Source of the DNA: an uncultured bacterium
Lineage (GTDB): Bacteria > Hinthialibacterota > Hinthialibacteria > Hinthialibacterales > Hinthialibacteraceae
Assembly (NCBI GenBank): GCA_964556895.1
Contig: CAZKYC010000001.1
Coordinates: 29,371-93,370 of the forward strand
Direction of reading: 5' to 3'
Length of the DNA stretch: 64,000 nucleotides
Positions 7,290 through 48,836 of this stretch are shown here, piece after piece. The position numbers and the translations under genes are program-made. Positions within the stretch are counted from its first letter, which is position 1; each line of letters opens with the position of its first letter. The notes under the pieces are model-generated. The model had not been told where the DNA came from, did no database searches, and saw only the letters and a program-made list of their open reading frames with translations.

Positions 7290-7291
7290 GA

Positions 7292-24173: not shown

Positions 24174-24298
24174 AAGTCAAGGAATTCTAAAAAAAAAAGA
24201 TAAAAAGATTGAAAAAACTAACCCACTAGATTCCTTCCTGTTCATTTACGCGTTATGTGTCTATAATTGCACAACTTGTTATATCAGCGGGGATCAAC

Positions 24299-24847: not shown

Positions 24848-24852
24848 GAGCC

Positions 24853-25134
24853 ATGACAAATATCAGTCCTGATCGAATGATTGACGCTTATGGTCAGCTC
24901 ATTGAAGAAGATCCAAATTTGGTCGAATTTTTTTCCCGAATCAATGAAAAGAATACAATAAGGATACGTGATCTTGCTGGCCCTTTTCAGGATTACTACA
25001 ATGCGTTGCGTGGGTTTGGTTTTCTAGAAGCAGAAACTGACCATCTTAGCCGCGACACAAAAATAGTATTTGCTGAAACGGGGAAAAAGTTTTGGGAAAA
25101 ATACGGATCTAAAATCGAAGAGTTGCGTAACTAG
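24853..25134 (+). CDS. Hypothetical 93-aa protein in the AT-rich islet, translationally coupled to the upstream ORF.
   Basis: AAAGGA lies 8 nt before the ATG of MTNISPD. It overlaps or abuts the preceding ORF. No recognisable motif. Confidence 0.45.
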   Translation: MTNISPDRMIDAYGQLIEEDPNLVEFFSRINEKNTIRIRDLAGPFQDYYNALRGFGFLEAETDHLSRDTKIVFAETGKKFWEKYGSKIEELRN

Positions 25135-25203: not shown

Positions 25204-25806
25204 TCAATACGGCATGATCACGCCCTCGTGAGAGGCGTAGATCTCACCATTTGACTCAACGCCGTTTGAGATGTGATAGACGTGTTTGATTGCTTGTGAT
25301 GGTGTGTACATCCACATCATGTCTTCATCTAAATCCGGCCCCATGCTACTCAAAGTAAACGCTTGAGCGCCTAAATTATATCTTTCTCTTATCGTATTTG
25401 AATATTCATACAATGGATGGATTTTTCGCCCGTAGTTCCATCTTTCTTTGATCGCTTTTACATAAAACACGTCTTCTGGAATAGATGAAATATACGCCGT
25501 AGGGGTTGTCAATAGGGTGTATGAGTAGATTTCCGTTTGAAATTGAGCGCCTTGCGTTCCTTTTTGCGAATTAAACGCAGGAGAAAGGCTACTGTGATTA
25601 CCATCAAAATCAGGCGGGGTGTCTTTGTAGTCGAGATAATAGGCGTTAATCGCGTCTGACAGTTTTCCTAAGTCGGTCACTGCTTGAGCGAGATCAGCGC
25701 GAATTTGCGCCTTGGAGAATTTTGGCAGCGACACCGCGAATAAAAGCCCCAACACAACTACGACAACAATGATCTCAGCAATGTGAATTCGGCGAAGCGA
25801 TTTCAT
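25204..25806 (-). CDS. GspG-like pseudopilin paralog with a degenerate prepilin cleavage motif.
   Basis: Same fold signature as its neighbours (hydrophobic N-helix, ...SMGPDLDED motif). The leader reads MKSLRR-IHIAEIIVVVVVLGLL and lacks the Gly(-1)-Phe(+1) pair; the +5 Glu is kept. Confidence 0.65.
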   Translation of the reverse strand: MKSLRRIHIAEIIVVVVVLGLLFAVSLPKFSKAQIRADLAQAVTDLGKLSDAINAYYLDYKDTPPDFDGNHSSLSPAFNSQKGTQGAQFQTEIYSYTLLTTPTAYISSIPEDVFYVKAIKERWNYGRKIHPLYEYSNTIRERYNLGAQAFTLSSMGPDLDEDMMWMYTPSQAIKHVYHISNGVESNGEIYASHEGVIMPY

Positions 25807-27854: not shown

Positions 27855-28067
27855 CTATTTGGGGGGTATATCTACTGGGTCCCAGTAATTTTCTTCTATG
27901 AAGCCGGAACCGACTAGACTTCTACAGAAGGCAGGATGCTCAGTAAGCATTGCCTGAAGAAATGACTGCATTCGAGTCGCATCTTCTGGAAACTCTTCAC
28001 ATCCGGCCCATTCGTCCATTACCCTTTTTGCAATGGCAGCAGCCCAATCTTCAATAGGTTTGTTCAT
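27855..28067 (-). CDS. Small 70-aa hypothetical protein co-transcribed with the HNH endonuclease, overlapping it by 17 nt.
   Basis: Lies in the low-GC islet. It starts inside the 3' end of the HNH gene. No recognisable motif (MNKPIEDWAAAIAKRVMDEWAGCEEFPED...). Confidence 0.45.
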   Translation of the reverse strand: MNKPIEDWAAAIAKRVMDEWAGCEEFPEDATRMQSFLQAMLTEHPAFCRSLVGSGFIEENYWDPVDIPPK

Positions 28068-28653
28068 ATTGCTTCCTAACTTGCTTCAGTAGATACTCCC
28101 GAATGGGGTTTGTTTCTTCTGGTCGGGCAAAGTGGGCCATCTTATGGTGATGGGCGCACAAGACAGCGAGATTCCAAAGACCATCCTCTCCACCCAAGTA
28201 AAGAGGAATAATATGGTGAACTTCGATATATCTTTCACCGTCCGGCTTGATGAAGGTATTTTCGCAGCTGTCCATTAGGCATCGTGAACCAAGAAATTCT
28301 TTTGCCCTACTTGCCCACTGTGTTTTACGGACATAAGACTCAACAAGATACTCCTTGCGTTCAGGCGTTTCTCCAGAGATATCAAGCGTGTGTGTTTCAT
28401 CCAGTTCACTGTCCAGCCATTCAACACCCCTTAGCGTATAGCAACCGGACTTATCAAGGAATGATAGAAAGCCCTCGTCACGAAGTTCCTGTAGGAGTCG
28501 TCGAACCGTTGCCTGTGGTGTTTGTCCCCCGATACCAATGGCTTCATAATTGCCGTGTGTTTCATTGATTTGCTTGAGCGTGAAGGTTCGTGAACCTTGC
28601 CGATTGCAGAATTCCAGTACCAGGCTTTTCAATCTATCTCTTTGCCCTATCAT
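28051..28653 (-). CDS. HNH (His-Me finger) endonuclease with an N-terminal winged-helix-like domain.
   Basis: C-terminal HNH module CLMDSCEN...EVHHIIPLYLGGEDGLWNLAVLCAHHHKMAH. The N-terminal roughly 110 aa is a wH-like DNA-binding region. Low G+C relative to the flanks. RBS GGGGA. Confidence 0.8.
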   Translation of the reverse strand: MIGQRDRLKSLVLEFCNRQGSRTFTLKQINETHGNYEAIGIGGQTPQATVRRLLQELRDEGFLSFLDKSGCYTLRGVEWLDSELDETHTLDISGETPERKEYLVESYVRKTQWASRAKEFLGSRCLMDSCENTFIKPDGERYIEVHHIIPLYLGGEDGLWNLAVLCAHHHKMAHFARPEETNPIREYLLKQVRKQYEQTY

Positions 28654-30434: not shown

Positions 30435-32099
30435 ATGCCGAGTTTGCTTCAGTCGATGGTCGAGTTAAAGCAGCTCTCGAATGCTGATGCAGAGAAACTC
30501 TCTGCATTAATCGGCTGCGGCAAAGTCAAAGCCGTCACAGAAGAAGATGTTCTTCATTGGCTGGCGGTTGAATATCAACTCCCTATAACCTTGTTACAGG
30601 ATGTCCCAATCGACCGCCAGCTGCTTTCTGAGTTCCCCGCGCGCGTCTTGCTCAAAGAAGAGTTGCTGCCGCTTCAGCGAACGAATGGCTCAGTCGATAT
30701 CGCCACCAGCCGTTTGTTCGCCACCGACGGCTTTGACGCGTTGCGTTCAATCACAGGATTAAAACTCAAACCCGTGTTGGCGCCGCGCGAGACCATCTTG
30801 CGCGAACTCAAACAACGCCTGGGGGTTGGCGCCGACACCATCGACTCACTCGACGACGACATCAACCTTCAAATCGTCGATGAATCGTCTGACGAAAACG
30901 TCAACCTCGAACAGGCCGCCGAAGACGCATCGATCATTAAATTTGTGAATCAGGTGTTTAGCGACGCGATTGAGTTGCGCGCCACTGACATCCACATGGA
31001 GCCGTTTGAAGACGAGTTGCGCATCCGCTACCGCATCGACGGCGTATTGCAGAGCGTACCGGTGCCGTCGCAAATCAAACGCTTTCAGCCCGCGATTGTC
31101 TCCCGCGTTAAAATCCTCAGCCATTTAAATATCGCTGAAAAGCGCCTGCCCCAAGACGGACGCATCAAGATTCGCATTAAAGACGGCGAGGTCGATGTTC
31201 GCGTGTCGATTATCCCCATGCTTCACGGCGAGGCGGTAGTCATGCGTCTGCTGCGGCAAGATTCGACCATCCTCGCCTTGAGTGAATTACACATGGCGCC
31301 GCGCGAAGAAGACCTGTTTCGGTCGATTCTCGACCTGCCGCACGGCATTGTCTTGGTCACCGGGCCAACTGGCAGCGGCAAGACGACTTCGCTTTACACC
31401 GCGCTGAGCGAGATCAATGACCACGAACGTAAGATCATCACCATCGAAGACCCCATCGAATATCAACTCAAAGGCATCAACCAGATTCAGGTGTCTGAAA
31501 AATCGGGCCTCACCTTCGCGCGCGGGTTGCGTTCTATCCTTCGCCATGACCCGGATGTCATTCTCATCGGCGAGATTCGCGACGAAGAGACCGCCCAGAT
31601 CGCGGTGCAGGCGTCGTTGACCGGGCACCTGGTCTTCTCAACGCTTCACACCAACGACGCGCCCGGCGCGATTACGCGACTCGTCGACATGGGCGTCGAG
31701 CCTTACCTGGTCGCTTCGTCGCTCGAAGCCATCATGGCCCAGCGCCTGGTGAGGGTGTTGTGCCCCCATTGTAAACAAGAAGACCATACCGATAAAACCC
31801 AGACGCTGCGCCAACGGTTGGAGATATTAAACGGCTCAGTCATCTATCAGGCCGTTGGTTGTGAACAATGCCGCCACACCGGCTTCCATGGCCGCCGGGC
31901 AGTGTTTGAAGTCATAGGCATGACCACCGAGATTCGCGAGATGGTGTTGAAAGAGCACTCGTCCGGCGAGATCCGCCAGGCGGCGTTTCGATCAGGCATG
32001 AACTCGCTGAGCCACGACGGTTGGCGCCTAGTCGCACAGGGCGCCACCACCGTCAATGAAGTGTTGCGCGTCACCAAAGACGAAGGCATCCAGAACTAA
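30435..32099 (+). CDS. gspE: Type II secretion / type IV pilus assembly ATPase (GspE/PilB family).
   Basis: N-terminal T2SSE_N-like domain. Walker A LVTGPTGSGKTT. Asp and His boxes. The C-terminal tetracysteine CPHC...CEQC. Confidence 0.9.
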   Translation: MPSLLQSMVELKQLSNADAEKLSALIGCGKVKAVTEEDVLHWLAVEYQLPITLLQDVPIDRQLLSEFPARVLLKEELLPLQRTNGSVDIATSRLFATDGFDALRSITGLKLKPVLAPRETILRELKQRLGVGADTIDSLDDDINLQIVDESSDENVNLEQAAEDASIIKFVNQVFSDAIELRATDIHMEPFEDELRIRYRIDGVLQSVPVPSQIKRFQPAIVSRVKILSHLNIAEKRLPQDGRIKIRIKDGEVDVRVSIIPMLHGEAVVMRLLRQDSTILALSELHMAPREEDLFRSILDLPHGIVLVTGPTGSGKTTSLYTALSEINDHERKIITIEDPIEYQLKGINQIQVSEKSGLTFARGLRSILRHDPDVILIGEIRDEETAQIAVQASLTGHLVFSTLHTNDAPGAITRLVDMGVEPYLVASSLEAIMAQRLVRVLCPHCKQEDHTDKTQTLRQRLEILNGSVIYQAVGCEQCRHTGFHGRRAVFEVIGMTTEIREMVLKEHSSGEIRQAAFRSGMNSLSHDGWRLVAQGATTVNEVLRVTKDEGIQN

Positions 32100-32118
32100 A
32101 CCGGAAAGATCGTAAGCC

Positions 32119-33342
32119 ATGTCACAGTTTCGATACCGCGTGATGCAAAGCGACGGCTCTCTCGCCGAGGGGACCATCGAAGCGCAAGGCAAAAACGACG
32201 CCTTCAGCCAGTTGGAAGCGCGCGGTTGGGCCCCCATTCAAATTAAAGAAGCCCAGGCAGGCCAAAAACAAACGGGGCTGTTTGACGGCTTTCAATTCAG
32301 CAAACGCGTTTCATACGCTGAATTGGAGAATTTCACCCGCTTGCTTTCAAACCTGCTGGCGGCGGGCATCCCTCTCAGCCGCGCTTTGGTGTTGCTATAC
32401 AAAGAAACCTCAACCCCGGCAGCCTCATCGCGCTGGAAAGAACTACACGACATGGTAGTCGACGGCAACTCGCTGGCCGACTCGATGGCCCAGTTTCCTG
32501 ACACGTTCCCCAAGGTGTATGTGGCGATGGTCCAGGCGGGCGAGACCGGCGGCTTCTTGGATTTGGTGTTGAACCAGATCGCCGAGTTTCAATCGCGCGA
32601 AAAAGACCTGCGCTCTAAAGTCATGTCGGCTCTAATTTACCCAGCGGTGTTGTTGACGCTGGCGATTGGCGTGGTCATCTTTTTGATGGTGTTTTTTATC
32701 CCGCGTTTTCAAAAACTGTTCGCCGGGTTTGGCGCCGACCTGCCGCTATTAACTCAGATCATCGTCAGCGCCAGCGAACTAATACGCGACTACGGCCCCT
32801 TTGTCGCCGTCGCCCTGGGCGTAATCTATTACTTCACACGCGCGTGGTTAGAGACCAGCCAAGGCAAGCGCTTCAAAGAAACCGCCGTATTGAACTTGCC
32901 CGTGATTGGGCCGCTCAACGCCAAATTCGCCATGGCGCGATTCAGCCGCATGTTAGGCACGCTGCTCGGCGCGGGCGTTCCGCTGATCAACAGCCTCAAC
33001 GTGGCGCGAAAGTCGATTCAAAACCAGATACTCTTCGACGCGGTCTCTGAATCGATCGAGCGCGTAAAAAAAGGCGACCAACTGGCGAGTAGCTTTGTCG
33101 ATTGCAAGCAACTGTTCCCGGGCACAGTACTCGAAATGATCAAAGTCGCCGAAGAAACCGGGCGGCTGGATGAAGAACTCTTGCGCCTGGCGAATACCAC
33201 CGAGAGCGATCTGGAGCGCCAGCTGCGCACGGCGGTGTCGTTGTGCGAACCATTGATGTTGTTCATCATCGCTGGATTTATCGGAACCATTTTTGTCGGG
33301 ATGGTGATTCCGATCTTCACCATACAAGACTATATCAAGTGA
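32119..33342 (+). CDS. gspF: Type II secretion inner-membrane platform protein (GspF/PilC family).
   Basis: 407 aa with two T2SSF repeats and 3 TM segments. Typical GspF motifs (LLAAGIPLSRAL, LGAGVPLINSL). Confidence 0.9.
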   Translation: MSQFRYRVMQSDGSLAEGTIEAQGKNDAFSQLEARGWAPIQIKEAQAGQKQTGLFDGFQFSKRVSYAELENFTRLLSNLLAAGIPLSRALVLLYKETSTPAASSRWKELHDMVVDGNSLADSMAQFPDTFPKVYVAMVQAGETGGFLDLVLNQIAEFQSREKDLRSKVMSALIYPAVLLTLAIGVVIFLMVFFIPRFQKLFAGFGADLPLLTQIIVSASELIRDYGPFVAVALGVIYYFTRAWLETSQGKRFKETAVLNLPVIGPLNAKFAMARFSRMLGTLLGAGVPLINSLNVARKSIQNQILFDAVSESIERVKKGDQLASSFVDCKQLFPGTVLEMIKVAEETGRLDEELLRLANTTESDLERQLRTAVSLCEPLMLFIIAGFIGTIFVGMVIPIFTIQDYIK

Positions 33343-33362
33343 TGTATTAGAGGAGACGTACA

Positions 33363-33803
33363 ATGAATATTCAAACCAAACCGAGACAACGCCGCCGCGC
33401 CCAACGCGGCTTTACGCTGGTTGAAATGCTTTTGGTGCTGGTGATTCTGGCGACCTTGGCGGCCATTGTCGTCCCCAAATTCGCCGGACGATCCGAACAG
33501 GCCAAAGTCACCGCCGCGCAGACGCAAATTAAAAACTTTGAAATGTCGCTCTCGGCGTTTGAAGTTGACAACGGCTTCTACCCCAAAGGCAGCGACGGGC
33601 TTGAAGACCTGGTCGAGCCGCCCAACAACGCCGCCGATTGGCGCGGGCCGTATCTTGATGAGATTCCCCTCGACCCCTGGGGCGCCGCCTATGTCTACGC
33701 CTACCCCGGTAAGAACAATACGCGGGGGTTTGACATTCACTCGAAGGGGCCTGATGGGCGCACAGGCGGGGATGATGACATCAGCAACTGGTCAAAAAAA
33801 TAA
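33363..33803 (+). CDS. gspG: Major pseudopilin GspG.
   Basis: Leader MNIQTKPRQRRRAQRG|FTLVEMLLVLVILATLAAIVVPKF. The C-terminal DPWGAAYVYAYPG...GFDIHSKGPDG is the canonical GspG signature. Confidence 0.9.
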   Translation: MNIQTKPRQRRRAQRGFTLVEMLLVLVILATLAAIVVPKFAGRSEQAKVTAAQTQIKNFEMSLSAFEVDNGFYPKGSDGLEDLVEPPNNAADWRGPYLDEIPLDPWGAAYVYAYPGKNNTRGFDIHSKGPDGRTGGDDDISNWSKK

Positions 33804-34314
33804 TCGCCAGGGGTTTACCCTGATCGAGATGATCGTGGTGATGGCGATTTTGACCGTCGTCGCCCTGGTCTCGGCGCCGTCTTTGTCGCGCTTCTTTCGC
33901 GGAAACGAACTGCTCGACGAAGCGCGGCAGTTCCTCGCCCTGACGCGCTACGCCCGGGCGCAAGCGGTCTCGACAGGCGTTCCCATGGTGATGTGGGTTG
34001 ATGAACAGCAATTTGAATACGGCCTGCGGCCTCAGCCCGGCTTTGTACTCGAAACCGATGAAGTGATCGGTTACGAACTGCCGGAAACCATCGAAATCGT
34101 CGCCTACCCACTCAATGTGGATACCGACAATATACACTACTTCATGTATGACGCTGAGGGCGGGGTTGAGACCCAGCAAGTCACAATGTTGATCTTTCAG
34201 AGAACGGGGCAAGTAAAAAATCAAGACCGCGTCGTCATGGTTCAATCATTACTGCGGCCTGAGTTCGAAATTGTGGACGAAAATGATCCAAATCTGGCCT
34301 ACTACCTCCAATAA
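33772..34314 (+). CDS. Minor pseudopilin, GspH-like.
   Basis: MMTSATGQKNNRQG|FTLIEMIVVMAILTVVALV prepilin motif. It starts inside the 3' end of gspG in another frame. The track shows a longer, spurious N-terminal extension. Confidence 0.75.
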   Translation: MMTSATGQKNNRQGFTLIEMIVVMAILTVVALVSAPSLSRFFRGNELLDEARQFLALTRYARAQAVSTGVPMVMWVDEQQFEYGLRPQPGFVLETDEVIGYELPETIEIVAYPLNVDTDNIHYFMYDAEGGVETQQVTMLIFQRTGQVKNQDRVVMVQSLLRPEFEIVDENDPNLAYYLQ

Positions 34315-34720
34315 AGCGCGCCGCCAGCGCGTTACACATACCAGAGAGGAACGCGGGTTCACGTTTCCTGAAGTATTGGCGGCGATGGTGTTCACCGCGG
34401 TTGTGGTTCCGACCGCGCTGCAGGGCGTCGCCATCGCCCACCGCGCGTCGGTCTTTTCGCAACGGCAGGCGGTCGCAGTCAGATTGGCCGAACAGACCCT
34501 GAACGAAATCATCATCAGCCAATCGTGGCAGTCAGGCCTCAACGAAGGGGCGTATGGCGAAGACCACCCCAACGTTCATTGGAAACTGTTCTCTGAACAT
34601 TGGCAGCAAGACGACATGCGGGTATTGACCGTGGCCGTCTATTTTCCACTCCAGGGCCAAGAGCGCCATGTCAGGCTCAGCGCCCTGGTCAGCGACGATG
34701 AGTTAAATGAAGACGAATAG
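34283..34720 (+). CDS. Minor pseudopilin, GspI-like.
   Basis: ...REERG|FTFPEVLAAMVFTAVVV prepilin motif with an unusually long leader of about 25 aa. It overlaps the end of the GspH-like gene by about 30 nt. Confidence 0.65.
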   Translation: MIQIWPTTSNKARRQRVTHTREERGFTFPEVLAAMVFTAVVVPTALQGVAIAHRASVFSQRQAVAVRLAEQTLNEIIISQSWQSGLNEGAYGEDHPNVHWKLFSEHWQQDDMRVLTVAVYFPLQGQERHVRLSALVSDDELNEDE

Positions 34721-35531
34721 GCCCGCCGCCCATAGCCAATCTGGCTTCACTTTGATCGAGTTGCTCTCAGCGGCGGCGATCTCGGCGATTCTGATCTTGT
34801 CGCTCAACACGGTGTTGTATAACGCCTTCAACCTGCGCGACAGTTCGGTTGAGTCATCCAACAAAACCAGCGCCCAACTCTACGCCGTCAATCTGATGAC
34901 GCGCGACTTCAAACACATGCTGCCGCCCGGCGAAGGCCTCGCGGGCGACGTGTTTGGCGAAGACCTGGGCGGACGCTCCATGCCCATATCTGTCGTTGAA
35001 TTTTTTACATCAAATGGAGCGATAGAGCCGTCCGAACCGTGGGGCGACATTCAATTCGTCGAATATTCTCTCAAAGAAATCACCGCGTTAGAAACTGAAG
35101 AGACGCGAAACGACAACGTCTATTACCTGGTGCGGTCGGTAGAACAAAACATTCTCTCATACACCGAAGAAGAACCCGCCTACCAACCTGTGCTCGCCAA
35201 TGTGAAAGGCTTTTTGGTTTCGTATTACGACGGCGAAGTTTGGGCCGACTATTGGGATTCAGGCGAAATCGACGAAGAAGAAACCGAGCGCCTGCCCCAA
35301 GCGGTTCGCGTGCAAATCCTAATTGAAGATAAGAAAGACGGTTCATCTATCGCTGCTCAGTCAAACCAACAGCGACTGGAACAAATCGAGTTTATTGTTC
35401 CCATCACGACCCAATCCATCACGCAACCCGAAGACGAACAAGACGAACAAGAGGCGGGGGCCGAAGAAAACAATCAAGAAAACCAAGACCCAAATAACGA
35501 CGGCCAAAACCAGGGAGGCGGTGGACGATGA
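34707..35531 (+). CDS. Minor pseudopilin, GspJ-like.
   Basis: MKTNRPAAHSQSG|FTLIELLSAAAISAILIL prepilin motif. A larger globular body. An acidic low-complexity C-terminal tail (QPEDEQDEQEAGAEENNQENQDPNNDGQNQGGGGR). Confidence 0.7.
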   Translation: MKTNRPAAHSQSGFTLIELLSAAAISAILILSLNTVLYNAFNLRDSSVESSNKTSAQLYAVNLMTRDFKHMLPPGEGLAGDVFGEDLGGRSMPISVVEFFTSNGAIEPSEPWGDIQFVEYSLKEITALETEETRNDNVYYLVRSVEQNILSYTEEEPAYQPVLANVKGFLVSYYDGEVWADYWDSGEIDEEETERLPQAVRVQILIEDKKDGSSIAAQSNQQRLEQIEFIVPITTQSITQPEDEQDEQEAGAEENNQENQDPNNDGQNQGGGGR

Positions 35532-36871
35532 CCCCCCCAACGCCTCTCTGTCAAAACAACCAATGCGGCGCGGTGTTAATCATCGTGTTGTGGATCGCAA
35601 CCGGCCTGGTCACCATCGCCTTGTTGTTCGGCCAGTCGATGATGTTTGAATACCGCGTCTCAGAAAACGCTAAGGCGGGCGTCCAGGCCCAGTTCGCCGT
35701 CGAGAGCGCGGCGCGTTATGCGACATCTATTCTTAAAAACCTTGAGTCGCCCGGCGACGTTCCTCTTGGAGAAAACTACACCGCCGAGCTCGCCCAGGTA
35801 GGCGACTCGCTTTTATGGATGCTCGGGCGTAACCATCAAGACGCCGCCTATACCGACCCCCAGTTCGGCCTCATCGACGAAGGCGCAAAACTAAACCTGA
35901 ATACCGCATCACTCGAAATGTTACTGGAGCTGCCCGGCATGACCGAGCAATTCGCCGCCGCCATCGTTGATTGGCGCGATGAAGACGACGAGGCGTCTGA
36001 AAACGGCGCCGAGGCCGACGCCTATGCGTTATTAAACCCGTCGTATGAATGCAAAAACGCGCCGTTTGAAACCATCTTTGAATTGCGCCTGGTTTATGGC
36101 GCCGATGACGAAACCTTGTTCGGCGAAGACGCCAACCTCAACGGCCTGTTAGACCCAAACGAGAGCGACGGCGCCATTGCTCTGCCAGAAGACAACCGCG
36201 ACGGCGTCTTAGACATGGGCCTGTTTGAATATGTCACCGTTTTCAGCCGCGTCCCTAACACCAACAGCGAGGGCGAAGCGCGGGCCAATATCAACGGCGA
36301 CAACGATGACGCGCTGGAAGAGTTATTAACCGAGACCTTGGGTTCTGAGCGCATGGGCGAATTGAACACCAACCCCGGCCAGGGAGAAGAATTCACCAGC
36401 CTGCTTCACTTCTTCATTATCAGTGGAATGACCGAAGACGAGTTCGCCCAAATCGAAACCGAAATCTCAATCAACGAAGACGAATATCTGCCGGGCTTAA
36501 TCAACGTCAATACCGCCAGCGCCGCGGTATTGGCCTGCGTACCCGGAATCGATGAATCAAACGCCCAACAAATCGCCGCCGAACAAGAAGAGCGCCGCGA
36601 GTCTAACTCGGTCGCCTGGGTGAAAGACATCCTCGGCGACGACGCCGCCATCGAAGCGGGGCCTTATCTCACCGGACAGTCATATCAGTTCACCGTCGAC
36701 GCCGCGGCGGTGGGGCGGCTGGGCAAAGGCTATCGCCGGACGCGCTATGTCATCGACCTCAGCGAGGGCGACCCAAAACTTGTCTACCAGCGCGACCTGA
36801 GCGGCCTGGGCTGGGCGTTGGGCGAGCGCCTGCGCCGCGATCTTATGGTATGGAAGGAACAAGCGTTGTGA
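35528..36871 (+). CDS. gspK: GspK-like minor pseudopilin / pseudopilus cap.
   Basis: N-terminal TM helix without a prepilin Phe. Internal helix-hairpin-helix/SAM-like repeats (LNLNTASLEMLLELPGMTEQFAAAIVDWR; INVNTASAAVLACVPGIDESNAQQI) are typical of GspK. Confidence 0.7.
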   Translation: MTPPTPLCQNNQCGAVLIIVLWIATGLVTIALLFGQSMMFEYRVSENAKAGVQAQFAVESAARYATSILKNLESPGDVPLGENYTAELAQVGDSLLWMLGRNHQDAAYTDPQFGLIDEGAKLNLNTASLEMLLELPGMTEQFAAAIVDWRDEDDEASENGAEADAYALLNPSYECKNAPFETIFELRLVYGADDETLFGEDANLNGLLDPNESDGAIALPEDNRDGVLDMGLFEYVTVFSRVPNTNSEGEARANINGDNDDALEELLTETLGSERMGELNTNPGQGEEFTSLLHFFIISGMTEDEFAQIETEISINEDEYLPGLINVNTASAAVLACVPGIDESNAQQIAAEQEERRESNSVAWVKDILGDDAAIEAGPYLTGQSYQFTVDAAAVGRLGKGYRRTRYVIDLSEGDPKLVYQRDLSGLGWALGERLRRDLMVWKEQAL

Positions 36872-38274
36872 TTGGTTCGCCAACACCATCCTACAAATCT
36901 ATCGTCAGCATCGAATTTGGGCGCGAATCGGTCAAAGCGGTTTCAGCGGCCAAAAACGGGCGCGGGCTCAAGATCAAAAAGACGCTTGATTGCCCGATTG
37001 ACGCCTGCCTGCTTACAACCGACCCTGACGCGCTGGGCGAGGCCTTGCGCATGCGTATGACTGAGACGGGCATGTATGATGCGCATTGTATGGTCAGCGT
37101 CCCGCTGCAATGGGTGCTGAAACACCGCATCGAGGTCCCTGAATTGTCGCCGGACGATGTCGAGAGCTATATCCGCCTTCAAGCCGAGCGCGCGTTTCCC
37201 TTCCCGCTTGATGAACTATCGATATCAACCTCATGGTTTGAAGCCGCCGATGGAAAGCGCTATGCGTCGATCCATGCGGTGCGCCTGTCACAAATTGAAG
37301 CGCTGCGCGCGGTATGCAAAAAAGCCAAACTCACGCCGCTGAGTTTCACCATTGGCCAACCGTCTGAGTTTAACGGCCAAACAAGCGGCCACGCAGTGCA
37401 TTTACGGCAGCGCGACGACGGCGTCGATTGTCAGATCATTCACAACAACGAATTGATTGGCTTTCGCTTTTTTGAAGCCGACTGGTCAGAAGGCGCACAC
37501 AAAGGAATTCCATCGCTGTTTCGCGACATTCGCGTGACGCTTAGCGAATTGCCCCTGGCGCTGCAATCATCGTTTGGCGCCATCGTGGTTTGCGGCCCCA
37601 GAGAATGGGCAGACGCGTTCATACAAGCGGCGGGGCCTGCGGCGAGCTTGATGAACATGCGCCTGGAGACAGCGGCGCCAATATCGCCCAAGCCGATCAA
37701 CGTAAACGGCGACGCCTATTGGGTCGGCCCTATCTATCACACCGCCAACCAGTTTTATCTAAACCAGAAGTCGCAGGTTGAATTTCTACCGCCGAGGGTG
37801 AACCGCTTTAAACAATGGGCGTCAAAAATTTCTTCGCGCGGCAGCCTGGTCGCGGGCGCAAGCGCCACCGCGGTGATGGTTGTCGTCTGCGCCGCGTTCG
37901 TCTACCAGTATTACACTTGGTCGAGCCTCAATTCGCGCTGGCAATCCATCCGCGATCAGGTCGATGAAGTCAGCGTCATTCAAGACAACGTCAGGCTGTT
38001 TCGCCCCTGGTTTGACGAATCGCTGCCTGCGTTATCCAGCCTCCATACCTTGGTCGAGGCGTTCCCCGAAGCAGGCAGCATCTGGGTCCAAGTGGTTGAG
38101 ATTGACCAAAGCCGCCGCGTGTCATTCTCCGGCTTCGCCGAAGACAGCCACGCGCTGCTCATGCTTCACGAAACCTTGAAACAAGACGAGCGCGTCCAAT
38201 ACCTGACGGTCGAACAGATGTTGGGCGAGCCGCCGATAAAATTTGCATTCAACTTTCAATGGATAGGCAACTGA
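36850..38274 (+). CDS. GspL-like assembly protein, a fusion of a PilM-like actin-fold cytoplasmic domain, one TM segment and a PilN-like periplasmic domain.
   Basis: PilM-like N-terminus IVSIEFGRESVKAVSAAKNG. TM LVAGASATAVMVVVCAAFVY at about residue 340. Periplasmic C-terminus. An alternative GTG start at 36868, preceded by GGAAGGA, makes a GTGA overlap with the gspK stop. Confidence 0.65.
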   Translation: MEGTSVVIGSPTPSYKSIVSIEFGRESVKAVSAAKNGRGLKIKKTLDCPIDACLLTTDPDALGEALRMRMTETGMYDAHCMVSVPLQWVLKHRIEVPELSPDDVESYIRLQAERAFPFPLDELSISTSWFEAADGKRYASIHAVRLSQIEALRAVCKKAKLTPLSFTIGQPSEFNGQTSGHAVHLRQRDDGVDCQIIHNNELIGFRFFEADWSEGAHKGIPSLFRDIRVTLSELPLALQSSFGAIVVCGPREWADAFIQAAGPAASLMNMRLETAAPISPKPINVNGDAYWVGPIYHTANQFYLNQKSQVEFLPPRVNRFKQWASKISSRGSLVAGASATAVMVVVCAAFVYQYYTWSSLNSRWQSIRDQVDEVSVIQDNVRLFRPWFDESLPALSSLHTLVEAFPEAGSIWVQVVEIDQSRRVSFSGFAEDSHALLMLHETLKQDERVQYLTVEQMLGEPPIKFAFNFQWIGN

Positions 38275-38276
38275 CC

Positions 38277-38813
38277 ATGAATATCGAAAACCGGCAACGC
38301 AACCTGGTCATATTCGCCATCGCCTGTCTCGCCCTGCTCGCGGGCGACAAACTGGTGGCGACGCCGTTGATCGCCTATTGGCAAGACGCCGCCGAAGACA
38401 TCGAAGCGCTGCGCCTGTCGCTCGACGAGGGCGAGCTGTTGCTCTCGCGCGAAGACGCCCTGCGCCAGCGGTGGGGCCTGATGCAGCGAAACGCCATGCC
38501 CGAAAGCAAAGCCCAAGCCGAAAATCTGGTGTTAAACGCGGTCGACGAATGGGTCAACCAAAGCGGCGTCAATATTTTTTCATTCAAACCGCAATGGAAA
38601 GACCAGAGCGACGACCACTTCACCTTAGAGTGCCGTGCGTCGCTTCAGGGCGACATGGAGGCGATGGTCAAGTTTTTATACACCCTCGAAACCGACCCGC
38701 TCGCGCTCAACGTCGAAGACATCGACTTGACATCGCGCGACGAAAACGGCAATAACCTGGCGCTGACGGTGGTATTCAGTGGATTGCAATTCAAACCCGA
38801 TACGGACGAATAA
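38277..38813 (+). CDS. GspM/PilO-like bitopic assembly protein.
   Basis: A short cytoplasmic N-terminus, TM LVIFAIACLALLAG, then coiled-coil and a ferredoxin-like periplasmic domain. Its position in the operon supports the call. The ATG is 3 nt after the upstream stop. Confidence 0.6.
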   Translation: MNIENRQRNLVIFAIACLALLAGDKLVATPLIAYWQDAAEDIEALRLSLDEGELLLSREDALRQRWGLMQRNAMPESKAQAENLVLNAVDEWVNQSGVNIFSFKPQWKDQSDDHFTLECRASLQGDMEAMVKFLYTLETDPLALNVEDIDLTSRDENGNNLALTVVFSGLQFKPDTDE

Positions 38814-38814
38814 C

Positions 38815-39369
38815 ATGAACAAACGACAACTGAATCATATCCTTTGGCCTGCGTTGTGGATGATGGCAATACTTAGCCCCACAGCCCCTGGGCAAAGCCA
38901 AGAGGCGCGCCGCCCGTCAATTGAGTTGGACGCCTTTCGGCTCATCGTTGAACGCAACATCTTTGACCCCAGCCGCGAAAAGCCCGGAGGCGAAGCCCCT
39001 CCCATCGAGCGCGCCCCCCAGGCAGACGAAATCGTCTTAGTTGGAACCTTAGTCACCGAATCTCAACGTTTCGCCTTCTTTGACGGATCGTCTTCCAGCT
39101 ACCGCCGCGTGTTGACAGTCGGCGCAGACATCGCTGGCGGCGCCGTTGCGGCGATTGAGTCAGCGACCATCTCCATTCGTCTTGATGACAACACCTTTGA
39201 CCTGCCGATTGGCATGAGTCTAAGCAGAGAAGACGACCAGCCCTGGCGCATCGAAACCGTTAAGCGCCGCATAGAGCCTGAAAAAGAAGAAGACAACAAA
39301 CAACCGGCCCCCGCCAACGATATTCTACGAAAACTCATGGAACGACGCAGTCAGGAGCAAAATCAATGA
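38815..39369 (+). CDS. PilP/GspC-like periplasmic linker protein.
   Basis: Signal-anchor MNKRQLNHILWPALWMMAILSP. A Pro/Glu-rich linker. A C-terminal beta domain (VLVGTLVTESQRFAFFDGSSSSYRRV). It lies immediately upstream of the secretin genes. ATGA overlaps at both ends. Confidence 0.55.
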   Translation: MNKRQLNHILWPALWMMAILSPTAPGQSQEARRPSIELDAFRLIVERNIFDPSREKPGGEAPPIERAPQADEIVLVGTLVTESQRFAFFDGSSSSYRRVLTVGADIAGGAVAAIESATISIRLDDNTFDLPIGMSLSREDDQPWRIETVKRRIEPEKEEDNKQPAPANDILRKLMERRSQEQNQ

Positions 39370-40757
39370 AAGCCGTGCAAACCATCCTACTGATTTCTAC
39401 AATGATCTTCATCGCCCAGCCGTTGGTTGGCCAAGACCAACCCGCCAACGGCGACAATGAGATTCGCCTCAATTTTCGCGGGGCCAGCCTCGACGCCGTG
39501 CTCGATTATTTGAGTGAAGTTGCGGGGTATGTCATTGTCAAACAAACCGAAGTCGACGGCCAGATCGACGTGTGGAGCCGCCAGCCGCTCAACCAAGAAG
39601 AAGCCATCAACCTGCTCAACACGGTGCTTCACGAAAAAGGCTACGCCGCCTTACGAAACGGGCGCATCCTCACCGTGGTCGACCGCGACGACGCCCGAGA
39701 GAAAGACATCCCCGTCAAAATCGGCAACGAGCCGCGCGCGCTGCCCAAAACCGACGAGATGATCACTCAGATTATCCCGGTGCGTTACACCGACGCCATG
39801 GCGTTGATCGACAATTTATCGCCGCTCCTGCCTGAATACGCCGACCTGTCAGCCAATGAAAGCAGCAACGCGGTCATCATCACCGACACCCAGGCCAATG
39901 TTCGCCGCATGATGATGATTGTCCGCGCGCTCGACACCTCAATCTCAAGCATCTCGGCGATCAACGTCTATCGGCTGCAATACTCAGACGCGACTCAAAT
40001 CGCTGAGATCGTCAACGAACTGTTTGAAGTCGAAGACGATGACACCCGTGGACGCGGCGGCGGGCCGGGCGGGTTCTTTGGCCGCGGCGGGCGCGACGGC
40101 GGCAATGAGAATGAATCTGACAGCGAAGCGCGAAAGGCCGCCTCTCGCGTGGTTGCGGTCGCTGACGAAAACACCAACTCGCTCATCGTTAGCGCGCCCG
40201 AAGAATATATGTCCACCCTCACCGAACTCGTCGACAAAGTCGACCAGCCGGTCTCTGACATTACCGAGATCCAAGTGTTTCGCCTGGAATACGCCGACGC
40301 CTACGAAATGGCCGACCAGATCCAAGAGTTGTTCCCTGATGAATCGTCCCAAGAACAAACCACCTTGGCGCCGCGCTTCGGGCCAGGCGCGTTCTTTGGC
40401 CGCGACGGTGGACGAAACAACCAACAATCTGACGACAGCGAGCGCCAACTACAGCAAGCCACCGTGCGCAGCGTCGCCGACCCGCGCACAAACTCTGTTG
40501 TGGTGTTCGCCGCCCAAGAGACCATGGCCCAAATCGCCCAGATGGTTCAGCGGCTTGATTCAGACACATCGAAGAAACAGAAAGTGTTTGTCTACCGCCT
40601 CGAATACGCCGACGTCGACAACCTCGCCGAGATATTGCGCAACATCTTTGAATCTCAAAACACCAACATCAACCGAACCGCCGACACCAACCAAAACACG
40701 CTCTCAAACCGCCAAGTCAATTTAAACACAGCCGACAACGACCAGCCGTTTAACTAA
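39366..40757 (+). CDS. Secretin N-domain protein. It has a signal peptide, an N0-like domain and three secretin_N-type repeats, but no pore domain.
   Basis: Signal peptide MKAVQTILLISTMIFIAQPLVGQ. N0-like IRLNFRGASLDAVLDYLSEVAGYVIV. Three repeats of the form (I/V)xV(Y/F)RL(Q/E)Y(S/A)DA...(A/I)(E/D)I(V/L)...F, separated by Gly/Arg/Phe low-complexity linkers (GRGGGPGGFFGRGGRDGG; RFGPGAFFGRDGG). A real TAA stop at 40758. Confidence 0.75.
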   Translation: MKAVQTILLISTMIFIAQPLVGQDQPANGDNEIRLNFRGASLDAVLDYLSEVAGYVIVKQTEVDGQIDVWSRQPLNQEEAINLLNTVLHEKGYAALRNGRILTVVDRDDAREKDIPVKIGNEPRALPKTDEMITQIIPVRYTDAMALIDNLSPLLPEYADLSANESSNAVIITDTQANVRRMMMIVRALDTSISSISAINVYRLQYSDATQIAEIVNELFEVEDDDTRGRGGGPGGFFGRGGRDGGNENESDSEARKAASRVVAVADENTNSLIVSAPEEYMSTLTELVDKVDQPVSDITEIQVFRLEYADAYEMADQIQELFPDESSQEQTTLAPRFGPGAFFGRDGGRNNQQSDDSERQLQQATVRSVADPRTNSVVVFAAQETMAQIAQMVQRLDSDTSKKQKVFVYRLEYADVDNLAEILRNIFESQNTNINRTADTNQNTLSNRQVNLNTADNDQPFN

Positions 40758-40778
40758 ACCGGAGCCAAGGCCGAAACC

Positions 40779-41939
40779 ATGAAAACCAAACTGACCTCAT
40801 TCATCCTAATCACCCTACTTACAACGGCGACCGCCTTCGCCCAACGCGCGTTTAACTTCAACCAGACCCAAAACGCGTCAAGCGCTTCTGGAACGCAGCG
40901 CACCTACTATTCAAACGGCATGATCGGCGAAGCCATCATCGAAGCCGACCGCGACACGCGTTCAATCATCGTGATCGCCGACGACTACACCAACGAACAC
41001 ATCAAGCGAATCATCGAAAACCTCGACCGCCCCGTCCAACAGGTGTTGATCAAAGTGTTGTTCGTCGAAGTGACCTATCGCGATGATTATGACTTTGGCC
41101 TTGAAGGCGCCCTTGATCTCAACAACAGCCGCCCCGGCTCCAATGTGTTTGACACCGCCTTTGGCGTGGCCGCTGAGTCGGCGGGCGGGTTTTACCGCCT
41201 GCTTGAGAGCGACGTCAACGTAACCATCCGCGCCATTCAAGAAGTCGGCAAGACCGAAGTCTTGTCGCGCCCGTCGATTCTGACCCGAAACAATCAAGAA
41301 GCGGTCATCACAGTAGGGCAGGAAGTGCCCTTCATCACCAGCAGCCAGACCACCGAACAGGGCAACACCATCAACGTCATCCAATATGAAGACATCGGCA
41401 TCATCCTGCGAGTGACCCCCTTCATCACCAAAGACGGCCTGGTCGAGATGATTCTCGCCCCCGAAATTTCCACCATCACCGATGAAACCGTGCCCATTTC
41501 AGAGACCGTCAACTCGCCGGTGTTCGCGAAACGCTCAGCCGACACCGTGGTGGTGACCCCCAACGGCCAGACGGTGGTCATCGGCGGCATGATGGAAGAC
41601 AACAACATCGAAGTGGAAAACAAGGTCCCTATTTTGGGCGACATCCCACTGTTGGGCTCGATCTTTCGCCGCACTCAAAAAAACAACTCAAAAACCGAAC
41701 TGTTAATCTTTCTGACGCCCTATGTCATGGAAGGCCCCGAACGCCTAGTTGAGCGCACCGCCATCGAGCGCAATGAATCAGACCTGGTGCCGAAGGCGTT
41801 TACACCGGAACAAATCGAAAAATACTTCGACAGCCCCCAGCCCCAAAATGAGGGCGAGGCCAACGAAACCCAAAAAAGGGAACCCAACACGCCGCCCTCA
41901 CGCCCAAGACAATCAAACAGCAAAGGGCGGCCATACTAA
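40779..41939 (+). CDS. gspD: Secretin (GspD/PilQ family) pore subunit. It has its own signal peptide, a single N3-like domain and the secretin C-domain.
   Basis: Signal peptide MKTKLTSFILITLLTTATAFAQ. N3-like IIEADRDTRSIIVIADDYTNEHIKRIIENLD. Secretin domain VLSRPSILTRNNQEAVITVGQEVPFITS...VVIGGMMEDNNIEVENKVPILGDIPLLGSIFRRTQKNNSKTELLIFLTPYVM. Confidence 0.85.
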   Translation: MKTKLTSFILITLLTTATAFAQRAFNFNQTQNASSASGTQRTYYSNGMIGEAIIEADRDTRSIIVIADDYTNEHIKRIIENLDRPVQQVLIKVLFVEVTYRDDYDFGLEGALDLNNSRPGSNVFDTAFGVAAESAGGFYRLLESDVNVTIRAIQEVGKTEVLSRPSILTRNNQEAVITVGQEVPFITSSQTTEQGNTINVIQYEDIGIILRVTPFITKDGLVEMILAPEISTITDETVPISETVNSPVFAKRSADTVVVTPNGQTVVIGGMMEDNNIEVENKVPILGDIPLLGSIFRRTQKNNSKTELLIFLTPYVMEGPERLVERTAIERNESDLVPKAFTPEQIEKYFDSPQPQNEGEANETQKREPNTPPSRPRQSNSKGRPY

Positions 41940-44806: not shown

Positions 44807-46093
44807 GTGGATACGAACACCGTAACACTCACACGCTCTCCTTATGAGGTCCTCAAAGTCAACCCTTGGGCTGACATAGAGACCATCAAAGCCCAGTATT
44901 TTCACTTGGTGAAACAATACAATCCAGAATATTATCCCCAAGAATTTATTGAGATTCGTACGGCGTTTGACATTCTCAAAGAACCAGCCAGCCGCGCGGT
45001 CTCAGATATCGAAAACTTTTCGCCGCCGCCCTCGTTTAACCATAGCGATTATAAAGGGATGGACATTCACTCCATCTCTCTCTTCAAACTCAACCAAGAG
45101 ATGAAAACGCTCTGCGGCGAACGCGAATTACACCAACTTGAAGGCGCAGAAAAAGACAAGGCGCTTCACCTGCTTCACGGCGCAGCCCTCTACCAGTCAA
45201 TTCACGGACACATCGAAGAAGCCAAAGAGGTCTGGAGCAAGATTCTCCAACTCTACCCTGACGACGAAGAGTCAAAAAGCAACCTTACCTATACCACATG
45301 GCAAGAAGCCTTTGACCGGTTCTCTGACGGCCAATATGAGAAAGCCGAAACCGCCTTTACCCAACTCGCCGAGTCAGGCTTCACCAACGCCGCCATTTAT
45401 AAAAATATTGCCCTCGCCCAAGAAAAGCAGGGCAAAAAAGACGAAAGCCGCGACTCGTGGAAGCAGACGATTGACTCACTCAACCAAGAATTAAAGTCTG
45501 ACCCCGAAAATGATTATCTGAAGGCCTTGGTTATCGCCGCCCATAAATACACCGGCGGCTACCACCTTGAAAGCCACGAAAACGGCGAAGGCAGCGAAGA
45601 CAATATCACCGCCGGGTCGGCAAAAGAACTTGGCTACGCTTGCATCAAACAAGGCAACTGGCGCCAAGCGCTTGAAGCGCTCGAGCGCGCCCGCAAAGAC
45701 AACGAAAAAGACATCGATGTCTTATGCCAACTTGGATGGGCGTATCTCAATACAAATCAACATAAAATCGCGTTTCAAACCTGGAACCACGCGCTAAAAA
45801 TCGCCCCGTCTAAACAGGGTGTCATCGACCACCTGGTCAAAGGACACACCATTTTTGGAAAACGCCTCGTCGAACAACGTATCTTTAACCAGGCGCTGGT
45901 TCAATTCAAAAACGCATTAAAACACGAGCCAAATAACATCGAACTCAGACTGTTAGTAGGCGAAACCTTTTTTAATATGAAAAACTACACCTCCGCCTTG
46001 TCTGAATTTCAGCGAGTGATGGAGCACGAACCACGAAACAAGGTCGCCCGGCAGGGCGTGAGAGAGTGTAAACGTCTCGGAGGATTTCGATGA
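44807..46093 (+). CDS. J-like domain (HPD replaced by NPE) plus TPR-repeat protein, a putative Hsp70 co-chaperone-like adaptor.
   Basis: N-terminal roughly 65 aa: SPYEVLKVNPWADIETIKAQYFHLVKQYNPEYYPQEFIEIRTAFDILKEP. This has J-domain helix II/III spacing but reads KQYNPE where K.YHPD is expected. It is followed by at least 6 TPR-like repeats. GTG start. ATGA overlap with the downstream grpE-like gene. Confidence 0.65.
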   Translation: MDTNTVTLTRSPYEVLKVNPWADIETIKAQYFHLVKQYNPEYYPQEFIEIRTAFDILKEPASRAVSDIENFSPPPSFNHSDYKGMDIHSISLFKLNQEMKTLCGERELHQLEGAEKDKALHLLHGAALYQSIHGHIEEAKEVWSKILQLYPDDEESKSNLTYTTWQEAFDRFSDGQYEKAETAFTQLAESGFTNAAIYKNIALAQEKQGKKDESRDSWKQTIDSLNQELKSDPENDYLKALVIAAHKYTGGYHLESHENGEGSEDNITAGSAKELGYACIKQGNWRQALEALERARKDNEKDIDVLCQLGWAYLNTNQHKIAFQTWNHALKIAPSKQGVIDHLVKGHTIFGKRLVEQRIFNQALVQFKNALKHEPNNIELRLLVGETFFNMKNYTSALSEFQRVMEHEPRNKVARQGVRECKRLGGFR

Positions 46094-46632
46094 TTGGTTG
46101 GTTGACCCGGTCAACTCAACTCGATCCTCGAGACGTATTTCCAATCGACAATATGCCGATTGAGACGTATGGAGGAAAAGGGACCAGCGCAATCAGGCTG
46201 ATGTATAAAAAGACGCCTGCCTTGCCCGCTCCCGGCGATACGCGGCGCCTGGCCGCCAAAAACGGCCTGGACAAGAATAAAGAAGATTTTTTCCGCCGCA
46301 TTCTCCCAATACTAGATAGCTTTGACACAATCTTTAACTATGCAAAAAACAACCACTTAGAGAGCAATGAGACCATCACCAACTGGGTAAGAACGCTAGA
46401 ATCGCTCTATAGGCGATTGTTCTCGGCTCTAGAAAAAGAAGGCTTGGTTAAGATAGAATCGCAGGGGCGTCAACTCAACCTCTCAGTTCATGAGGTGGTT
46501 GAAACCCGTGAAGCGCCAGAAAAGCCTGACCAATTGATTTTAGAGGAATTACTGAAGGGGTATCAATACGGGAACCGGGTCTTACGCGACGCCAAAGTGG
46601 TCGTGGTTAAGAACCCTCGCGTTGAAGATTAA
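46090..46632 (+). CDS. GrpE-like nucleotide exchange factor, short form.
   Basis: ILPILDSFDTIF...LESLYRRLFSALEKEGLVKIESQGRQLNLSVHEVV...GYQYGNRVLRDAKVVV matches the GrpE coiled-coil and beta-sheet domain pattern. 180 aa. RBS GGAGGA. Confidence 0.65.
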   Translation: MIGWLTRSTQLDPRDVFPIDNMPIETYGGKGTSAIRLMYKKTPALPAPGDTRRLAAKNGLDKNKEDFFRRILPILDSFDTIFNYAKNNHLESNETITNWVRTLESLYRRLFSALEKEGLVKIESQGRQLNLSVHEVVETREAPEKPDQLILEELLKGYQYGNRVLRDAKVVVVKNPRVED

Positions 46633-46787
46633 ACCATTACACGCGTTCTTCTTCATGATATGTTATCATCGAAGATTGCGTCAATCGAAAAAAACTTGAT
46701 TGATCGGCCAGATTTAGACGACAAGTTCACTGAACTTATGATATATCTTGGCCATATACCGAACGCGCGCCGGAGGAAGCAGAATAG

Positions 46788-48542: not shown

Positions 48543-48579
48543 ACACGTTTAACTTGAATTACGCTTACTACCATTGATC

Positions 48580-48613
48580 CCAGACGGCCTCGCGCCGTCT
48601 GGTTTTTTGTTTT
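48580..48613 (+). terminator. Rho-independent terminator after the Hsp70 gene.
   Basis: ccagacggc-ctcgc-gccgtctgg followed by TTTTTTGTTTT. Confidence 0.85.
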
Positions 48614-48754
48614 CATGCTTATCTGCATGTAATTATTACCAGGAGGTTCGCCCTCCCCGTAATACCGAAAGCAAGTCAATATAAATTGAGCAGAGACGCG
48701 TTCAAGAAAGTGTAAGTTTGATTTCTAGAGCGTTTGTCAAAAAATGTGCGTAAA

Positions 48755-48836
48755 GCGCGCCCGTATCCGCCGCGGCGGACAGCGATAGATACAGTTACGT
48801 AAACTCAATCCGCACATAATTCTGGCAACCACTATA
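48755..48836 (+). repeat. Intergenic repeat family 2, copy c.
   Basis: gcgcgcccgtatccgccgcggcggacagcgatagatacag...caatccgcacataattctggcaaccac aligns with 1245-1321. Confidence 0.7.

Follow-up and report, generated by a model that had tools for sequence, protein, structure and literature searches.

A secretin is generally regarded as one large polypeptide, as in the canonical proteobacterial type II secretion systems (T2SS; Gsp/Pul/Eps/Xcp), which comprise the parts E to M, a GspC-type HR protein and a GspD-type secretin that carries N0, the N1-N3 domains and the secretin domain on one chain. Separately encoded secretin parts are known from the rhizobial-type type III secretion systems (T3SS), where the N- and C-parts are separate genes (RhcC1/NolW and RhcC2; HrcIIC1/HrcIIC2) and where the C-part gene is split again in one strain, the functional meaning being stated as unknown (PMC3574062). 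They are also known from the mitochondrial T2SS-derived system of some protists, in which GspD consists of several polypeptides (GspD and GspDN1-3); GspD and GspDN1 were found to interact in a yeast two-hybrid assay, GspDN2 and GspDN3 are half N-domains, GspO is not known, and a co-occurring family, Gcp16, is shared with bacteria of the Planctomycetes-Verrucomicrobia-Chlamydiae (PVC) group (PMC8134430). There the split was attributed to the eukaryotes, and the bacterial donor could not be identified (PMC8134430). Here we analyze 64,000 nucleotides of DNA (the window) from an uncultured bacterium of the phylum Hinthialibacterota (assembly GCA_964556895.1, contig CAZKYC010000001.1, positions 29,371 to 93,370), in which 12 co-directional genes at 30435-41939 form a T2SS-like operon whose secretin is divided between two adjacent genes, called DN and DC below, with the cut inside an N-domain. 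For a split bacterial T2SS secretin we found no description in open-access papers and preprints, where the Rhc T3SS and the mitochondrial system were the sole cases to turn up; a prior description is possible.

Open reading frames (ORFs) of at least 150 aa across the window were scanned against Pfam and NCBIfam, and these matches form the basis of the gene calls. DN, the secretin's N-terminal part (39366-40757, plus strand, 463 aa), matches N0 (Pfam, 2.8e-11) and, in four stretches, Secretin_N (2.4e-45); it begins with a signal peptide and N0, continues with three full Secretin_N repeats and the first half of a fourth, and ends in an Asn/Thr-rich tail. DC, the C-terminal part (40779-41939, plus strand, 386 aa; Pfam Secretin, 6.5e-50), starts with a signal peptide of its own, MKTKLTSFILITLLTTATAFA, cleaved ahead of a Gln, which is followed by a low-complexity stretch, the second half of a Secretin_N domain, the secretin barrel, C-terminal helices and a tail. 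The NCBIfam model of GspD, 600 positions in length, is tiled by the two proteins, DN matching positions 1-333 (233 bits) and DC positions 283-595 (240 bits), so that all the domains of GspD are present, on two proteins instead of one. A Foldseek search with the AlphaFold2 (AF2) model of DC returned T2SS secretins as the best structural matches, with PulD/GspD structures at 5e-17. An earlier reading of this DNA, made from the sequence only, had listed a secretin N-domain protein followed by a secretin; both genes are indeed there, and what had escaped it is that they are one secretin cut in two.

According to the sequence comparison, the bisected domain is the last, membrane-proximal Secretin_N repeat of the secretin. 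The DN side of the cut, KKQKVFVYRLEYADVDNLAEILRNIF (40572-40664, plus strand), corresponds to β1-α1 of the repeat (Secretin_N profile positions 1-44 of 69) and is followed by the Asn/Thr-rich tail, while mature DC starts with the low-complexity stretch and continues with GEAIIEADRDTRSIIVIADDYTNEHIKRIIENLD (40932-41045, plus strand), which corresponds to β2-β3-α2 (profile positions 32-69 of 69) and runs straight into the barrel. The AF2 model of DC contains only β-β-α ahead of the barrel. The DN end scores 24 bits and the DC start 18.7 bits, each under the Pfam Secretin_N cut-off of 28.2 bits, whereas the joined halves reach 41.9 bits over positions 1-69, which is above the cut-off and near the 45.9 bits of the intact N1 repeat. 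The cut site coincides with the variable α1-β2 loop, the same loop that, in the two repeats of DN before it, is extended by long inserts rich in Gly, Phe and Arg (GGGPGGFFGRGGRDGG at aa ~225-250 and RFGPGAFFGRDGG at aa ~335-350), at the place where the DN orthologs exhibit RFGGG-type repeats. We infer that the domain re-forms from two chains.

It could be argued instead that DN and DC are separate proteins that share no domain, with DN acting as an independent periplasmic ring or scaffold in loose or partner-mediated contact with the pore, and with the two halves being decaying remnants. The sub-threshold Pfam score of each half taken alone and the long, low-complexity loose ends on both sides of the cut would fit such an arrangement. 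However, few segments of DN and DC are as well conserved across phyla as the two halves, which contain invariant or nearly invariant residues; this is not expected of remnants, and the halves sum exactly to one domain. Besides, in nine related loci (see below) a different repeat is cut as well, at the same loop. We therefore regard the absence of a shared domain as unlikely and prefer the reconstitution of one repeat from two chains.

The conservation of the split was studied in relatives collected by a scan in which each species was represented by one genome, and which yielded 584; the examined set comprised the best 80 and the loci fetched earlier, the counts of the split cover 81 related loci, and the gene order was read wherever the contig reaches. 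DN and DC are separate in all 81 loci, which come from about five phyla, and the order E-F-G-H-I-J-K-L-M-C-DN-DC is held wherever it can be read, including two closed verrucomicrobial chromosomes of 6.1 Mb and 10.5 Mb. All 81 DN proteins end in the first half-domain followed by a low-complexity tail of 31-65 aa, and all 24 aligned DC proteins start with a signal peptide that has an invariant terminal Gln, followed by a low-complexity stretch and the conserved half-domain. More than 120 homologs of DC were found, 334-481 aa in length, with the Secretin domain only.

The arrangement in the window itself would allow for a trivial explanation, namely that a nonsense mutation or a sequencing error has placed an in-frame TAA into an ordinary gspD gene, leaving the system either dead or dependent on read-through, since the DN and DC ORFs are in the same frame and are separated by TAA and 21 nt. 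In the related loci, however, which come from independent assemblies and are all split at the same place, the two frames are the same in 38 cases and different in 43, and hence read-through cannot be the general route. The conserved signal peptide of the downstream protein (24/24 aligned sequences) and the existence of numerous Secretin-only homologs also argue against an accident of sequencing or mutation, and we consider a pseudogene or read-through of the TAA as ruled out for all practical purposes.

In nine loci, belonging to at least three lineages (L016, L018, L034, L043, L049, L053, L067, L078 and L082, from metagenome-assembled genomes (MAGs) of Verrucomicrobiales, Limisphaerales and Sumerlaeota), DN is cut a second time in the equivalent α1-β2 loop of an earlier repeat, to give a three-piece secretin; the genes concerned are located a little upstream of position ~10000 of the locus, or at the equivalent place. 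Here, too, the piece downstream of the cut starts with a signal peptide, and the two pieces are in different frames in seven of the nine cases. That cuts recur at one structural position, always together with a signal peptide, argues for biology and against assembly error. Two, and sometimes three, chains predicted to be exported by Sec together hold one complete GspD-like domain set.

Carriers of the split secretin labeled as Verrucomicrobiota include Limisphaerales, Verrucomicrobiales, Chthoniobacterales, Pedosphaera and a MAG named Akkermansia muciniphila; the remaining labels are Sumerlaeota/BRC1, Kiritimatiellota, Lentisphaeria/Victivallales, Hinthialibacter-like MAGs assigned to "Omnitrophota", and one Haliangiales MAG. 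This type of T2SS is common to Hinthialibacterota, Verrucomicrobiota, Sumerlaeota, Kiritimatiellota and Lentisphaerota. The pore and the periplasmic ring stack are placed on separate proteins, apparently held together by the two-chain domain, in a widespread clade, which includes genomes labeled Akkermansia and many environmental Verrucomicrobiota, and which may provide a natural system for studying the assembly of the secretin ring and its coupling to the inner-membrane motor. Two observations concern individual members of the set: the MAG labeled A. muciniphila (L017) carries this operon of 12 genes, split secretin included, at 1-11044 of its locus, and the 10.5-Mb genome (L003/L012), labeled Limisphaerales, has DUF1501/PSCyt neighbors.

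The other known cases of fragmented secretins resemble the one described here to different extents. The Rhc T3SS shares the separate encoding of the N- and C-parts; however, its secretin is of the SctC type and belongs to a type III system, and its two genes have other genes between them or are located on different segments, whereas DN and DC are direct neighbors. DN and DC are found in a T2SS context and match GspD best, while the matches to SctC reach only 46 and 118 bits, respectively. The mitochondrial T2SS is a precedent for separately encoded GspD pieces that interact, and the operon in the window offers a bacterial counterpart to it. One might go further and suppose that bacterial secretins cut inside Secretin_N, made of two to three Sec-exported chains, represent the ancestral state of the fragmented mitochondrial GspD/GspDN. 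On that view, a system of this type would have been present in the bacterial donor from which the mitochondrial T2SS came, and the break-up would not be eukaryotic. We consider this very improbable. A weaker form of the idea would treat the cases as independent examples of a general capacity of Secretin_N domains to form from two chains.

The remaining ten genes of the operon, all on the plus strand, provide the parts expected of a T2SS. The secretion ATPase is of the GspE type (30435-32099, 554 aa; Pfam T2SSE 1.2e-139), with an N-terminal MshEN domain (2.1e-15), and is the sole T2SSE-type ATPase among the ORFs scanned; it is followed by the inner-membrane platform protein GspF (32119-33342, 407 aa; Pfam T2SSF 2e-56, two repeats). 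The major pseudopilin GspG (33363-33803, 146 aa; Pfam T2SSG 1.1e-31, N_methyl 1.1e-8) has a class III signal, QRG-FTLVEM (hyphens mark the cleavage site found in a motif scan). Among the four minor pseudopilins, GspJ (34707-35531, 274 aa; Pfam T2SSJ 3.4e-10 and N_methyl) and GspK (35528-36871, 447 aa; Pfam T2SSK_1st 8.6e-14, T2SSK 1.1e-8 and HHH_3) are clear. The N-terminus of GspK has no Glu at +5, which is usual for GspK proteins. The GspH-like protein (33772-34314, with the probable start ATG at 33772 or 33775; Pfam N_methyl 9e-10 and a weak GspH match, 1e-4) and the GspI-like protein (34283-34720; NCBIfam gspI 9e-5, under the cut-off, and no Pfam match) are matched weakly, but have class III signals (RQG-FTLIEM and ERG-FTFPEV, respectively) and conserved positions; the position of the latter is kept in all related loci that reach that point.

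The GspL-like protein (36850-38274, 474 aa) comprises a PilM-like cytoplasmic domain, a single membrane segment near aa 335-358 and a periplasmic C-terminal domain, a topology that fits GspL; the PilM-like domain is the only part detected by profiles (Pfam PilM_2 7e-10 over aa 21-163; NCBIfam pilM 6e-11). GspM (38259-38813, 184 aa) matches the NCBIfam family T2SS_GspM_XpsM with an E-value of 2.5e-13 (50 bits versus a cut-off of 60) and Pfam T2SSM_b with 1.3e-4. Adjacent genes of the operon are separated by gaps of 1-21 nt or overlap by 4-32 nt, with ATGA overlaps at the J/K and C/DN junctions. A scan of the operon for promoters and terminators gave counts that equaled or came close to those of shuffled sequences. 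The sequence-only reading had described a T2SS-like operon of tightly joined genes in this order, and the Pfam and NCBIfam calls for the 12 genes, as well as the junctions, bear it out.

The same reading had stated that GspC is lacking, which is doubtful. A protein of 184 aa, counted from the ATG at 38815 (184-196 aa), is encoded between GspM and the secretin (38815-39369, plus strand) and comprises an N-terminal hydrophobic segment and a putative HR-like β domain. Its sole NCBIfam match is GspC_delta, the model of the deltaproteobacterial GspC (2.8e-5, 24 bits versus a cut-off of 150), and Pfam yields no match of any kind, PDZ included. A profile built from 43 orthologs and compared with the whole PDB retrieved only PilP (2y4x, 2lc4) and the HR domain of GspC (2lnv), with E-values of 0.12-0.38. 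The protein is present in 76 loci, i.e. in every locus that reaches this position. Its position and its weak matches, which are limited to GspC and PilP, make it a probable GspC/PilP equivalent.

Matches of the PilM_2, PilO and PilP types for the L, M and C-like proteins, as well as the extra pilin-like genes found nearby (see below), raise the question of whether the cluster, instead of a secretion piston, could build a type IV pilus-like surface fiber that serves in adhesion, motility or the uptake of DNA. The type IVa PilMNOPQ system does share with the operon a PilM-like domain and PilO/GspM-like and PilP-like HR proteins encoded just upstream of the secretin. However, the equivalents of PilM and PilN are fused here, as in GspL, a short GspG (T2SSG 1e-31) represents the major subunit, and the pseudopilin set runs from GspG to GspK, with an H-I-J-K tip set that includes GspK itself. 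The best match of the M protein is GspM_XpsM, the N-part of the secretin is GspD-like and not AMIN/PilQ-like, DN and DC match GspD (233 and 240 bits) better than PilQ (77 and 162 bits), and the scanned ORFs of the window yielded no second, PilT-type retraction ATPase. A fiber-building machine is in our opinion quite unlikely. The Amuc_1098-1102 pilus cluster of Akkermansia muciniphila, which includes Amuc_1100, is another system of verrucomicrobial origin with a secretin and a PilM-like protein, and was considered as a candidate identity. It was rejected, as DC scores 85.8 bits against an Amuc_1098_fam cut-off of 750 and the GspL-like protein 28 bits against an Amuc_1101_fam cut-off of 650, and as the L017 ortholog of the 184-aa protein is of a different kind.

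Compared with the canonical T2SS, the operon appears to have the same parts E-M, a probable GspC-type HR protein and a GspD-type secretin, in similar order. It differs in that the secretin consists of two polypeptides, cut inside an N-domain, that the Secretin_N-type repeats number four, not three, and have loops rich in Gly, Phe and Arg, that the GspC equivalent is short (~184 aa), and that the cluster is devoid of a peptidase or pilotin gene. The notable feature is the conserved, intradomain-split T2SS secretin, while the complete operon, the unlinked peptidase and the extra pseudopilins are ordinary.

Taken jointly, the data suggest that the region probably encodes a functional T2SS with an intradomain-split secretin, whose half-domains re-pair and whose peptidase is unlinked. 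In the mechanism we propose, the half-domains of DN and DC would pair in the periplasm and rebuild the membrane-proximal N-domain ring, thereby tying the ring stack of DN to the pore of DC, with one DN per DC. The stack of N0 and N-domain rings would hang beneath the pore, and the N0 end of DN would dock on the GspC/PilP-like protein, which would connect it to the motor formed by GspL, GspM, GspE and GspF that drives the GspG pseudopilus as a piston. The class III signals of G, H, I, J and of two stand-alone paralogs would be cut by a prepilin peptidase encoded elsewhere. The N3 domain of secretins is reported, in work cited in PMC8134430, to be necessary for pore assembly, and pore formation may for that reason depend on DN. 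Several points weigh against this interpretation. The binding of DN to DC and the pairing of their half-domains are predicted from sequence, confidence in the AF2 models is moderate (pLDDT 63-65), and the assignments of GspI, GspH, GspL and GspC/PilP combine weak or sub-threshold matches with conserved position. Neither a substrate nor a pilotin nor a peptidase was identified in the window, and the system could build a fiber instead of secreting. Finally, neither DN nor DC alone reaches the curated GspD cut-off of 351 bits used by NCBI, and for the same reason annotation pipelines and detectors of secretion systems may under-score systems of this kind.

The host belongs to a little-known phylum. 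DC is 84% identical to a protein of Candidatus Hinthialibacter antarcticus (phylum Candidatus Hinthialibacterota), and the text of the paper describing Hinthialibacter is devoid of a discussion of secretion systems or pilins. The genes of the Kdo transferase KdtA and of LpxK are present in the window at 60581-62970, which suggests that the host most likely makes lipopolysaccharide and has an outer membrane.

A prepilin peptidase in cis had been reported as missing, and we found no peptidase of the A24 family among the scanned ORFs of at least 150 aa (the two truncated ORFs at the edges were checked by eye only), nor did the A24 active-site motif GxGDxK occur in any of the six frames of the window. 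At least six class III signal peptides were found in the window by the motif scan (G, H, I, J and two stand-alone genes), and so the enzyme is most likely encoded elsewhere in the genome. Unlinked prepilin peptidases are common, e.g. PilD/XcpA, which serves Xcp in Pseudomonas aeruginosa, and therefore its absence from the window is commonplace.

Upstream of the operon, the three GspG-like genes noticed in the sequence-only reading are all present, the third of them on the minus strand. The first two are ordinary prepilin-type genes, encoding proteins of 172 aa (22551-23069, plus strand; signal SQA-FTLIEL; Pfam N_methyl 3e-9, NCBIfam gspG 1.2e-13, below the cut-off) and 209 aa (23544-24173, plus strand; signal KSG-FTLIEL; Pfam N_methyl 2.5e-8, T2SSG 6e-6). 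The third, of 200 aa (25204-25806, minus strand; NCBIfam gspG 4.6e-10), is degenerate. It aligns position for position with the other two, but reads RR-IHIAE in place of G/A-FTLIE, with Arg at -1, Ile at +1 and Glu at +5 kept; Gly-1 and Phe+1 are gone, as had been claimed. Prepilin peptidases need Gly or a small residue at -1, and the product should therefore not be cleaved. It has one homolog among 5.8 billion clustered proteins, at 33% identity, in which the cleavage motif (N_methyl) is kept. The gene may be a decaying copy or may encode a newly anchored membrane protein. Its GC content is 0.44, the average of the window being 0.53, and the low-GC patch beside it is possibly acquired DNA. 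Adjoining it at 24257-25134 are overlapping ORFs of 196 and 102 aa with a GC content of 0.34 and 0.40, respectively, and no Pfam match. The GspG-like paralogs do not match the NCBIfam model TIGR04294 (H-X9-DG).

A head domain of GspG was also noticed in an exported protein of 452 aa (51438-52796, plus strand), which had been described as carrying only this domain behind a Sec signal. The Sec signal (...APTYA-DVV, not a prepilin signal) and the GspG head are there, and the GspG similarity, whose failure would have counted against that reading, holds in profile searches: the C-terminal ~80 residues match Pfam T2SSG (9.4e-13, aa 367-441), NCBIfam and, with a profile of the family, the structures of PulG, EpsG and XcpT (best PulG 1t92, 4.5e-5). 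However, the head is not all that follows the signal, as it is preceded by ~330 residues which are modeled as a small β domain, a FecR-like β-sandwich and a disordered Pro-rich linker, and the pilin helix is absent. In the AF2 model (pLDDT 65) the β-sandwich region reaches ~75-87, and Foldseek matched it to FecR/anti-sigma periplasmic domains (4m0n, 8.5e-6; PupR 6ovk, 5.7e-4), a likeness that is to be taken as model-based; Pfam FecR does not match, and a related protein from Sumerlaeia is named FecR domain-containing by NCBI. Against the GspG family model TIGR01710 the head (aa 367-443) scores 39.6 bits versus a cut-off of 88.85, and the N-terminus that defines the family is replaced by a Sec signal and the ~330 intervening residues, so that the NCBI label GspG for an ortholog is a mislabel.

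The nearest named relative of the 452-aa protein comes from Candidatus Hinthialibacter antarcticus. A word-indexed search retrieved six relatives, and an exhaustive profile search gave 3,168 matches, among them ~30 full-length clusters (at 50% identity) of the same build; many of the other matches are proteins with Sec or lipoprotein signals and one to five GspG heads, devoid of the prepilin helix. Four proteins of this sort (P0144, P0148, P0152 and P0164) have 2-5 tandem heads behind an exported or lipoprotein signal, one of them with leucine-rich repeats and one with an N-terminal zinc ribbon and a membrane segment. Few of the GspG-head proteins that were looked up bear a name in the source databases. 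The 452-aa gene does not lie beside T2SS genes. It closes a block at 44807-52796 that encodes DnaJ-TPR, GrpE, Hsp70, a membrane protein with zinc ribbon, TPR and coiled coil, and a LarB-like protein with the AIR-carboxylase fold, whose gene it overlaps by 4 nt; this order of chaperone, LarB-like and 452-aa genes is kept in relatives at 42-51% identity (L084, 1-7350; L085, 1-7311).

In the sequence-only reading, the scattered GspG-like genes, together with the 452-aa protein, were taken to suggest a pseudopilin-domain toolkit, possibly used as cargo or adhesin modules; in the form considered here, the toolkit would be serviced by the operon. The reuse of the head outside pseudopilins is real, broader than was proposed and under-described, given the recurrence of heads without the pilin helix in many exported multidomain proteins and the conservation of the 452-aa family at 42-75% identity. 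On the other hand, a role as cargo or adhesin found no support: the extra GspG-like genes and the 452-aa gene are separate from the operon and unlinked to it, the latter being part of the conserved chaperone block, and the degenerate paralog is a near-orphan in low-GC DNA. We give the toolkit, in the sense of modules serviced by the operon, little credence, and most plausibly the GspG heads of exported proteins are a protein-binding module.

Two further loci in the window deserve mention. A solitary gene on the minus strand (28051-28653), located between tgt and a methyltransferase gene, encodes a protein of 200 aa in which an HNH endonuclease domain is combined with a weakly matched DpnI_C-like helix-turn-helix. 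Also on the minus strand, at 5556-8992, two neighboring genes encode zinc carboxypeptidases of ~570-580 aa, both with a Peptidase_M14 domain, which may be secreted enzymes.

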